64,000 nt of DNA from a virus. Location: the IMG/VR virus record IMGVR_UViG_3300045988_098562, positions 19,484-83,483 of that record. The stretch is one strand, 5' to 3'. Position 1 is the first letter of the stretch. The number at the start of each line of letters is the position of its first letter. A model generated the notes under the pieces. It made no database searches. It was not told the DNA's origin and worked only from the letters and a program-made list of their open reading frames with translations. The translations under genes and the position numbers were made by a program. Shown here piece after piece: positions 14,117 through 15,124 of the stretch.

Positions 14117-15124
14117 ATGGGTGGTGATAAAATCGTCCTTTTAGATGGAGCCGGGGCTAACGGTGGTGGTGCAGCCACTAACGGTCTTCTTTCAATGATT
14201 CCCGGCATGTTTGCTAATTTGATAGGTGGTAATAAAATGGATCCGAATCTGGTGGCGGCTTTGATGAACGGTCGTAACAACCAGGACGGTTTCGGTGGGG
14301 CTAACGGTTGGTGGCTCTGGATAATTGTTTTGTTCTGGCTGTGGGGTGGACGCGGCTTCGGTAACGGTTTTGGAAATGGCGGTGATTGTTGCGCCAATGG
14401 TTTGCCGGCTCAGTTGAATAACGATTACGGTCGTGAACTTTTGATGCAGGCAATTCAAGGTAATCGTAGCGCCATAGATCAGATTGCTTCTGCTTTGAAC
14501 TGTTCTACTACTCAACTTCAGAACGCTATCTGCAACGTACAGGGTGCTATTGATAAAGTAGCTGGTCAGGTAGGTATGACTTCTCAGGCTGTTATCAACG
14601 CAGTTCAACAACAAGGTTGTGAAATAGGAAATCAAATCAGCTCTTGCTGCTGCAATCTGAGTTCGTTGATCAATCAAAGCACTTGCCAGACTCAGGGAAT
14701 GATTACTCAGCAAGGTTTTGATAACCAGCTTCGCACGTTGGAACAAACCAATATCTTACAGAATGGTCTCAACCAAGGTCTGGCTAACAATCGTGAGCAA
14801 GCTACAAGCCAATTCAATATCTTGTCTGCGAAACTTGACGCCCAAACCGTTATGATCAACGACAAATTCTGTCAGTTGGAAATGAGGGAGATGCAGAACA
14901 CTATTGCTCAACTTCGTGAAGAAAAAGCGGCTTTGACAGCTTCGGCATTATCTCAGCAACAAACCCAGAATATCGTTGGTCAATTACGCCCGACGGCCGT
15001 CCCGGCCTACCCCTCTTGTTCTCCTTACCAGGCTTATACTTGGGGACAGGTATTCGGAGGAGGTTGCTGTAATAACGGATGCGGATGTAACAACGGATGT
15101 TGCAATAACAACGCTGCTGTCTGA
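14117..15124 (+). CDS. Gly/Gln/Asn/Cys-rich membrane protein of unknown function (N-terminal GGxG repeats, TM helix WWLWIIVLFWLW, Q-rich coiled coil, C-terminal GGGCCNNGCGCNNGCCNNN)
   Basis: Long stop-free ORF in AT-rich DNA despite extreme composition; likely start ATG 14117 (MGGDKIVLLDG) rather than track start 14060; antisense ORFs on - strand are shadows. Confidence 0.55.
   Translation: MGGDKIVLLDGAGANGGGAATNGLLSMIPGMFANLIGGNKMDPNLVAALMNGRNNQDGFGGANGWWLWIIVLFWLWGGRGFGNGFGNGGDCCANGLPAQLNNDYGRELLMQAIQGNRSAIDQIASALNCSTTQLQNAICNVQGAIDKVAGQVGMTSQAVINAVQQQGCEIGNQISSCCCNLSSLINQSTCQTQGMITQQGFDNQLRTLEQTNILQNGLNQGLANNREQATSQFNILSAKLDAQTVMINDKFCQLEMREMQNTIAQLREEKAALTASALSQQQTQNIVGQLRPTAVPAYPSCSPYQAYTWGQVFGGGCCNNGCGCNNGCCNNNAAV

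Follow-up and report, generated by a model that had tools for sequence, protein, structure and literature searches.

A membrane-anchored, rod-shaped phage protein may be compared with proteins of lysis and of DNA ejection. The spanin Rz of phage lambda comprises about 150 amino acids (aa), and holins are small membrane proteins (about 60-220 aa) with usually one to four transmembrane (TM) domains and little soluble mass, which cause lethal lesions in the membrane. The ejection or 'pilot' protein H of phiX174 reportedly has 328 aa; its N-terminus is described as hydrophobic and rich in Gly, its C-terminus as aromatic, and its Q/N-rich helix, about 130-140 residues long, as forming a 17-nm tube. 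Here a gene of 335 codons, called the target in the following, was analyzed on a stretch of 64,000 nucleotides (nt), the window, which corresponds to positions 19,484 to 83,483 of IMG/VR virus record IMGVR_UViG_3300045988_098562. The source of the window is an epsilon crAss-like phage, and the gene is not discussed in the epsilon-crAss paper. It was found to be the first gene of a cassette that travels as a unit among Bacteroidales phages; this cassette is undescribed as far as tools and literature show, its sequence family being catalogued but uncharacterised. The target and its parts are:

14117..15124 (+): target gene, 335 aa, Gly/Asn/Gln/Cys-rich and charge-poor, member of phrog_16490
14306..14350 (+), aa 64-78: Trp-rich hydrophobic segment GWWLWIIVLFWLWGG with Gly-rich flanks, conserved in 44 non-redundant family members
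14585..14983 (+), aa 157-289: predicted long helix of about 133 residues and about 20 nm, with heptad-like periodicity
14645..14653 (+), aa 177-179: CCC triplet, the sole invariant motif of the family besides Met1
15002..15121 (+), aa 296-335: C-terminal tail, PAYPSCSPYQAYTWGQVFGGG plus three C-x-C/CC-N-N-G units (aa 317-332, nt 15065-15112)

The open reading frame (ORF) was confirmed to extend from ATG 14117 to the TGA ending at 15124. In the csAssE-Sib record a longer ORF of 354 aa, starting at 14060 and labelled 'spike protein/glycoprotein', is annotated, but alignments of homologues favour the start at 14117. The target is a real gene under strong purifying selection, since pairwise ratios of nonsynonymous to synonymous substitution (dN/dS) against relatives of 87-97% identity amount to 0.03-0.10, the Cys/Gly/Asn tail is kept within the clade in the same comparison, and at least 1,000 public contigs carry an identical protein. 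A sequence-only reading of the window had drawn attention to an extreme Gly/Gln/Asn/Cys composition, which the figures bear out: Gly contributes 13.1%, Asn 11.6%, Gln 10.7% and Cys 5.1% (17 Cys), the sum of 39% being the highest among 66 ORFs of the window (mean 16.3%, standard deviation 5.1), and the share of Lys, Arg, Asp and Glu is the lowest of these ORFs with 10% (mean 30%). The motifs listed there were all located in the 335-aa ORF, namely GAGANGGGAATNG at aa 11-23, GFGGANGW at aa 58-65, WWLWIIVLFWLW at aa 65-76, GFGNGFGNGG at aa 80-89, CC at aa 91-92, CCC at aa 177-179 and the tail stretch CCNNGCGCNNGCCNNN at aa 317-332. In favour of the 'prion-like' character also proposed, nothing beyond composition was found.

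About 63 N-terminal residues are followed by the hydrophobic segment, a Gly-rich linker, a helical rod and the Gly/aromatic/Cys tail. Judged from its conservation, the segment at aa 64-78 is probably the membrane anchor of the protein, and a single one. In the 44 non-redundant members it mostly has an acidic residue before it and an Arg behind it, with K/R 0.68 and D/E 0.91 on the N-terminal side and K/R 0.84 and D/E 0.57 on the C-terminal side; the approximately 63 residues before the anchor are net negative, and the flank-charge bias only weakly favours a C-in orientation. An AlphaFold2 (AF2) model, calculated with a 33-sequence alignment, placed helices at aa 65-77, 103-126, 131-150 and 157-289, with a mean predicted local distance difference test score (pLDDT) of 59.7 and values above 90 only for about aa 205-285. 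The heptad contrast of aa 95-290 was 0.385 compared with 0.285 +/- 0.035 in shuffled sequences, a value reached by 4/500 shuffles, and within the long helix the block INDKFCQLEMREMQN.I..LR represents invariant columns of the alignment of closer relatives (A2). The membrane-type segment, the coiled-coil-like rod and the Cys-rich tail of the sequence-only reading were thus recovered, and the model depicts the target as a single-anchor, rod-shaped protein with an N-terminus of about 60 aa, a Trp/Gly-rich helix, a charge-poor Q/N-rich rod and a variable tail. The comparison of the AF2 model with known structures that the same reading had suggested yielded no match in Foldseek against the PDB (E >=2), and the profile search gave only heptad repeat 1 (HR1) of a coronavirus at E 0.011.

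What is shared by 33 diverse members (alignment A1) is the hydrophobic, Gly-flanked W/F/I/L segment, the block LLMQAIQGN..AI.QLA..LNC and the CCC triplet, in which C179 is invariant and C177 and C178 are conserved in at least 90% of the sequences. The exact CCNNGCGCNNGCC tail is restricted to one clade; elsewhere in the family the protein ends in '..GYGGYPYG..CGC', in the fusion-peptide-like 'YGLGFGFG..GFWG' or in poly-Thr. Even among near-identical relatives the number of C-x-C/CC-N-N-G units varies, with two in P0010, three in the window and four in P0012, and a tandem-repeat search of the tail DNA detected no repeat at the DNA level.

The earlier statement that nothing comparable is familiar did not hold, as the target matches the profile phrog_16490 over its full length with E 2.5e-43, residues 37-328 being aligned to profile positions 6-284 of 286. 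In a collection of 5.8 billion proteins 3,285 homologues were found, which form 935 representative clusters at 50% identity. By tblastn the family was detected in 30 phage records, most of them from several families of Crassvirales, including cr116_1, cr1_1, cr52_1 and Bacteroides phage C3_41T2LP, and a genome scan added integrated prophages of Parabacteroides, Paraprevotella, Bacteroides and Alistipes; a scan of viral contigs for related loci yielded close relatives only. Matches in metagenome-assembled genomes labelled Firmicutes/Bacilli reside on crAss-sized contigs of about 98 kb and look like mis-binned phage contigs. A distant member was also observed in vir335 (BK063680, Caudoviricetes sp.; L161:6857-7780), a virus assigned to the archaeal host Methanomassiliicoccales. 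It possesses the hydrophobic anchor and two CCC motifs without a Cys tail and adjoins a multi-TM protein and a surface-type protein of 541 aa. A check is called for, be it of the host assigned to this virus or of the Bacteroidales-specificity assumed for the family. The CCC motif is likewise kept in the distant member of Parabacteroides phage PD691P6.

Labels in Crassvirales records read 'spike protein/glycoprotein' or 'outer capsid protein/viral fiber'. The best PDB profile match of the family is coronavirus S2 HR1 (8x5o, E 0.011, 38 residues), and the 'spike' label is an artefact of this marginal coiled-coil similarity. A class I fusion glycoprotein was rejected in view of the E-value of 0.011 over 38 residues, of Foldseek values of E >=2 and of a different domain order. 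Scans of the target and all cassette proteins against Pfam, NCBIfam and PADLOC gave only coiled-coil noise, DUF7841 excepted. When the target, beta-protein and DUF7841 families were searched as profiles against the PDB, nothing emerged beyond the marginal HR1 match of the target.

For analysis of the cassette, ORFs were clustered around 61 family members; the positions given below are the most common offsets, and some loci are shifted by at least one place. At all 61 loci the target is the first gene of a co-directional module of fixed gene order, composed as follows:

Position 0: target, 61/61 loci
Position +1: beta protein of about 128 aa (phrog_31654), 44/61 loci within the next few genes, exactly +1 in 35; in the window 15148..15561 (+), a beta-rich, charge-poor, phrog_31654-type protein of 137 aa with two CC pairs in the window clade
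Position +2: protein of about 173 aa with N-terminal beta domain and coiled coil (phrog_28898), 47/61 loci; in the window 15618..16106 (+), 162 aa, with a charged C-terminal coiled coil
Position +3: Arg/Glu/Asp/Gly/Tyr-rich protein of about 95 aa, about 30/61 loci; in the window 16114..16482 (+), a low-complexity protein of 122 aa ending in RGRGRGRGRSY
Position +4: DUF7841 (PF25223), 49/61 loci; in the window 16483..16869 (+), with the annotated start Met at 16576
Position +5: HExxH peptidase of about 141 aa, 27/61 loci; absent in the window

The assignment to phrog_31654 is the PHROG match of a member of the beta family (alignment A3), for which neither a Pfam nor a PDB match was obtained. 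Neither a signal peptide nor a lipobox was detected in the 137-aa beta protein and its 43-member family, and the other cassette partners are likewise without a signal peptide. For the third gene of the cassette in the window, homologues favour ATG 15618, which agrees with the N-terminus 'MF..L..G' of its family, over TTG 15612 of the mechanical ORF list. Counterparts of the Arg-rich protein end in ..GRYSRY or ..RRGRRRRR, and the peptidase in the cassette of C3_41T2LP is labelled as a PolyVal-type metallopeptidase.

Target and beta genes are marked as a two-gene sub-unit by two signals:

15137..15142 (+): perfect Shine-Dalgarno sequence AGGAGG, 5 nt before the beta-protein ATG at 15148
15566..15594 (+): perfect 13-bp hairpin directly after the beta stop codon, -18.5 kcal/mol, z -4.45, 0/200 shuffles as stable

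A rare strong Shine-Dalgarno sequence and CC pairs of its own had been claimed for the gene following the target, and both claims proved correct: the full AGGAGG precedes 6 of about 75 window genes, that of the beta gene being the only one in the plus-strand late block, and two CC pairs are present. Perfect AGGAGG is called rare in Bacteroidales phages too. The hairpin is possibly an attenuator or terminator. Across 34 loci, which stem from few clades and are not phylogenetically independent, the Cys count of the last 40 target residues correlates with that of the beta protein (Spearman 0.76), and all 10 loci with a poly-Thr target end, which lack the Gly/aromatic/Cys tail, also lack the beta gene (10/10). 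Because of this co-variation and co-occurrence, of the strong Shine-Dalgarno sequence and of the hairpin after the second gene, partnership is the most economical reading, and the target tail probably docks the beta protein. Binding between the two through Cys, by metal or disulfide, is plausible, and to this extent the earlier idea of a metal-binding or disulfide-crosslinked surface or envelope protein is sustained, its location at a surface or envelope being unproven. Since no cassette partner has a signal peptide, the tail must encounter them either inside the cytoplasm or on virions under assembly, and rod and tail of the target are hence either cytoplasmic or assembled into virions.

In most lineages the cassette lies within or beside lysis genes. 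A holin, endolysin or u-spanin-like family was recorded in the flanks of 32/58 loci and within three genes in 21/58. In cr116_1 the u-spanin-like gp015, a holin and an L,D-carboxypeptidase precede the cassette, in cr1_1 and the TAG-recoded relatives L112, L121 and L127 it stands between or adjoins holin and endolysin, and in prophages the order is holin, endolysin (of four different types), u-spanin-like gene, cassette and integrase. Parabacteroides phage PD691P6 carries a distant version directly before holin, endolysin and spanin. Canonical holins (PF05105, crAss001 gp28-like) are separately encoded in target loci, and a holin was rejected as identity of the target, which is too large (335 aa) and combines one hydrophobic segment with a soluble rod of about 260 aa. 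A family of u-spanin architecture was observed besides, with 110-200 aa, an N-terminal lipobox (e.g. LLTSC, FVGC) and a C-terminal TM helix, which follows the endolysin in many Bacteroidales prophages and in cr116_1 (L092:6988-7458, L130:1110-1556, L002:3418-3762, others); it matched nothing in Pfam, PHROG or NCBIfam.

The TAG-recoded crAss-like relatives L112, L121 and L127 contain many in-frame TAGs in the target and its cassette partners, as in the neighbouring holin; the target of L127 has 10 TAG compared with 24 CAA/CAG. By analogy to the model in which late and lysis genes carry in-frame TAGs (bioRxiv 10.1101/2021.08.26.457843), this would fit translation confined to the late phase of infection. 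The target family could not be matched to the 'spanin' family of the same preprint.

The remaining features of the cassette and its surroundings in the window are:

12796..12993 (+): small helix-turn-helix-like (HTH-like) protein, 65 aa, neighbourhood family 12, at -1 to -3 of the target in 6 loci
13959..13994 (+): hairpin with T-rich tail, -15.7 kcal/mol, z -3.1
16480..16482 (+): in-frame TGA, which parts the Arg-rich ORF from DUF7841 within one reading frame (16114-16869)
17231..17261 (+): intrinsic-terminator-like hairpin with T run, -17.2 kcal/mol, z -4.4

Usually a small HTH gene is situated one to three genes upstream of the cassette. Three types of upstream DNA-binding gene occur in all, the other two being a DnaA-C-like HTH (24 loci) and an excisionase-like HTH_17 (10 loci); the gene at 12796..12993 is labelled 'lactose operon repressor' in csAssE-Sib. 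The hairpin at 13959..13994 is probably the terminator after an inserted endonuclease-like gene and delimits the cassette transcription unit on its upstream side; the downstream end of this unit is probably the hairpin at 17231..17261. The region has the look of a homing-endonuclease hotspot. In the window an AntA plus T5orf172/GIY-YIG-like endonuclease gene (13281-13934) is inserted between HTH gene and target, an Alistipes prophage bears an HNH/NUMOD4 endonuclease between target and beta gene (L164:10979-11596), its sister copy being without the insertion, and in C3_41T2LP an I-HmuI-like endonuclease gene is placed directly upstream of the target. About 1.2 kb past the end of DUF7841 at 16869, a fusion of WDGH (E 1e-36) with a Tad2-like anti-Thoeris domain (E 5e-12) is encoded at 18112-18753.

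The conserved N-terminal motif of DUF7841 is found at 16483-16575, that is, in 31 start-less codons after the TGA. This TGA is kept in about 79 related loci of two sub-clades, the 31 codons show nonsynonymous and synonymous diversity of pN 0.215 and pS 0.784 compared with 0.231 and 0.839 in the rest of DUF7841, and other phages encode the Arg-rich part and DUF7841 as a single fusion protein. On account of these three observations programmed readthrough or recoding is suggested, and the TGA is probably read through or otherwise recoded to give a fusion protein. No tRNA gene was detected in the window, and no paper mentioning DUF7841 was found in the literature.

Regarding function, we tentatively favour, at a confidence well short of even, a late membrane-anchored complex tied to lysis or egress, in which the tail docks the beta protein. 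Late in infection the hydrophobic helix would hold an oligomeric stalk in the cytoplasmic membrane of the host, and the C-terminal tail would bind the co-encoded beta protein, in the window clade probably via disulfides or Cys-metal contacts to which both contribute. This complex and the soluble cassette proteins might then act jointly alongside holin, endolysin and spanin, for example by tuning the timing or site of lysis or by organising membrane egress, and the target itself would be neither a spanin nor a receptor-binding spike. The cassette is portable across unrelated virion types, which argues for a site of action common to all hosts, the membrane, rather than for a specific capsid, and this portability, the HTH gene and the lysis-side position are a better fit for a membrane complex. 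Several points weigh against it. No characterised homologue bears on the function, and the co-variation of tail and beta protein comes from few clades that are not phylogenetically independent. The charge-poor N/Q/S/T/G/Cys composition of target and beta protein and some Thr/Pro-rich tails have a virion-like or extracytoplasmic-structural appearance, and the flank-charge bias, from which the membrane topology would be read, is weak. Near the cassette of the window neither a homologue of the crAss001-type holin, endolysin or gp27 nor a TM-rich small ORF was detected, nor was a lysis gene recognised near that of C3_41T2LP; in the window the cassette is located between giant virion-protein genes, and the downstream protein of 2,137 aa matches a 'virion structural protein' PHROG. 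In crAss001, from which the cassette is absent, the gene between holin and endolysin encodes the head fibre gp29 (PMC10172136). As no lysis gene was recognised near the cassette in the window and the crAss001 slot holds a head fibre, position alone cannot decide between a role in lysis and one in the virion. A bolder proposal, which we consider unlikely, is that target and beta protein build a new phage membrane structure in Bacteroidales, be it an H-like, Q/N-lined helical tube through which DNA of tailed phages crosses the envelope or a dedicated inner-membrane assembly at the site of egress or lysis, for which the pyramid proteins of archaeal viruses, with their single TM segment, offer a loose parallel; the Arg-rich/DUF7841 readthrough fusion and the HExxH peptidase would then be assembly or regulatory factors.

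The closest rival to the lysis- or egress-associated complex is a virion-delivered ejection protein, a possibility we hold to be doubtful, and it is as such a protein that the host-membrane-targeting effector of the sequence-only reading could still be accommodated, with rod and beta protein in or on the virion and the Gly/Trp helix inserting into the host membrane. Oligomers of the Q/N-lined helix of about 20 nm might span the periplasm as a conduit or anchor, like phiX174 H, while the Arg-rich protein, DUF7841 and the PolyVal-type peptidase would be co-injected. Architecture and size parallel those of H, the rod helix being modelled with 133 residues, the charge-poor, structural-type composition and the Thr/Pro tails suit a virion protein better than a cytoplasmic one, and the partners are without signal peptide yet must meet the tail; the giant virion structural genes flanking the cassette in the window and the PolyVal-type label of the C3_41T2LP peptidase point the same way. 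No homology to H was detected, however, when an H sequence was compared with the family profile in hhalign (probability 1.2%), crAss001 must also eject its DNA and yet does without the cassette, temperate phages carry it outside the structural modules after the lysis genes, and a packaging route would be needed in each of its carriers, which differ widely in genome size and gene layout (crAss-like phages, about 100-150 kb; lytic phages, 40-74 kb; integrated prophages). An external fibre on head or tail, with the coiled coil as stalk and the beta protein as distal knob, shares the argument from composition and would follow the stalk-plus-knob logic of its analogues crAss001 gp21 and gp29 and reovirus sigma1, and it is what the labels 'spike glycoprotein' and 'outer capsid protein/viral fiber' stand for; crAss-like cassettes fill the holin-endolysin slot which in crAss001 belongs to the head-fibre gene gp29, and crAss001 virion proteins use disulfides (PMC10172136). 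It is nevertheless improbable, given that the best-conserved part of the target is a strongly hydrophobic Trp-rich helix atypical of a soluble fibre, that one conserved N-terminus would have to attach to virions of unrelated structure, that no resemblance of the beta family to either head fibre, gp21 or gp29, emerged (hhalign probability <1%), and that the 'spike' label goes back to the HR1 match of E 0.011 only, Foldseek being null.

Equally improbable is a spanin-like fusogen, anchored in the inner membrane, spanning the periplasm with its coiled coil and reaching the outer membrane with a fusion-peptide-like tail. The N-proximal anchor followed by a coiled coil is i-spanin architecture, the modelled rod length is near the width of the periplasm, the tail variant YGLGFGFG..GFWG resembles viral fusion peptides, and lysis genes are in the neighbourhood. 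A lipoprotein partner is nonetheless missing, for the beta protein has neither lipobox nor signal peptide and no lipobox occurs in ORFs inside or overlapping the target; the tail co-varies with a protein devoid of signal peptide, the N-terminal region is not positively charged, and separate spanin-like genes co-occur, that is, gp015 in cr116_1, the temperate families 6 and 20 (lipobox and C-terminal TM) and, in cr1_1, L121 and PD691P6, a gene resembling crAss001 gp27, with N-terminal TM segment and coiled coil. With the lipoprotein partner missing and other spanins at hand, the target as the spanin of its phage was rejected as main explanation. Hardly more probable seems a set of accessory 'moron' genes that serve conflict between phages, be it by superinfection exclusion, by defence or by anti-defence, a cassette of which the target would be the membrane component. 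Its position at the prophage end next to the integrase is typical of moron and defence genes, its distribution is patchy, it has its own HTH gene, and in the window the Tad2-like anti-Thoeris gene follows about 1.2 kb after its last gene; PADLOC, on the other hand, gave coiled-coil noise only (ZorA tail E 7e-4, LmuB E 1.4e-3), the cassette shares both its orientation and its TAG recoding with late genes, and known exclusion functions usually reside in single genes. Spanin-like, fibre and exclusion or defence roles are therefore all ranked below the membrane complex and the ejection protein.

The family occurs in many crAss-like phages and Bacteroidales prophages, which are among the most abundant human gut viruses, and neither the target nor its four or five cassette partners were matched to a characterised family or solved fold. 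The placement in lysis modules points to an unrecognised step in the exit of phages from, and possibly their entry into, Bacteroidales cells; both are poorly understood and bear on the unusual persistence of crAss-like phages. Testable handles are offered by the pairing of tail and beta protein, the invariant CCC and the conserved in-frame TGA, and culturable carriers by C3_41T2LP, PD691P6 and the prophages of Alistipes finegoldii, Parabacteroides segnis BX2 and Paraprevotella xylaniphila YIT 11841. The misleading 'spike glycoprotein' label, which had spread into UniRef, is now corrected.

Because comparison with spanins, fusion glycoproteins, the pilot protein H, holins and defence systems led to full agreement with none of them, the target is placed outside the known kinds, and its function is one that we infer. 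With coronavirus S2 HR1 it shares a charge-poor, Q/N/S/A-rich heptad segment (the LLMQAIQGN..AI.QLA block), whereas signal peptide, HR2 and C-terminal TM segment of the spike are lacking and the anchor is N-terminal. The crAss001 gp29, encoded between holin gp28 and endolysin gp30, is a soluble protein of 122 aa without the hydrophobic anchor of the target. Like the i-spanins (lambda Rz) and u-spanins (T1 gp11), the target is predicted to be bitopic with a coiled coil of periplasm length and is often encoded beside holin and endolysin, but with 335 aa it is about twice the size of lambda Rz and has neither an o-spanin partner nor a lipobox. The plan and size of phiX174 H are the same as those of the target, which in turn belongs to tailed double-stranded DNA phages and is encoded there inside an accessory cassette.

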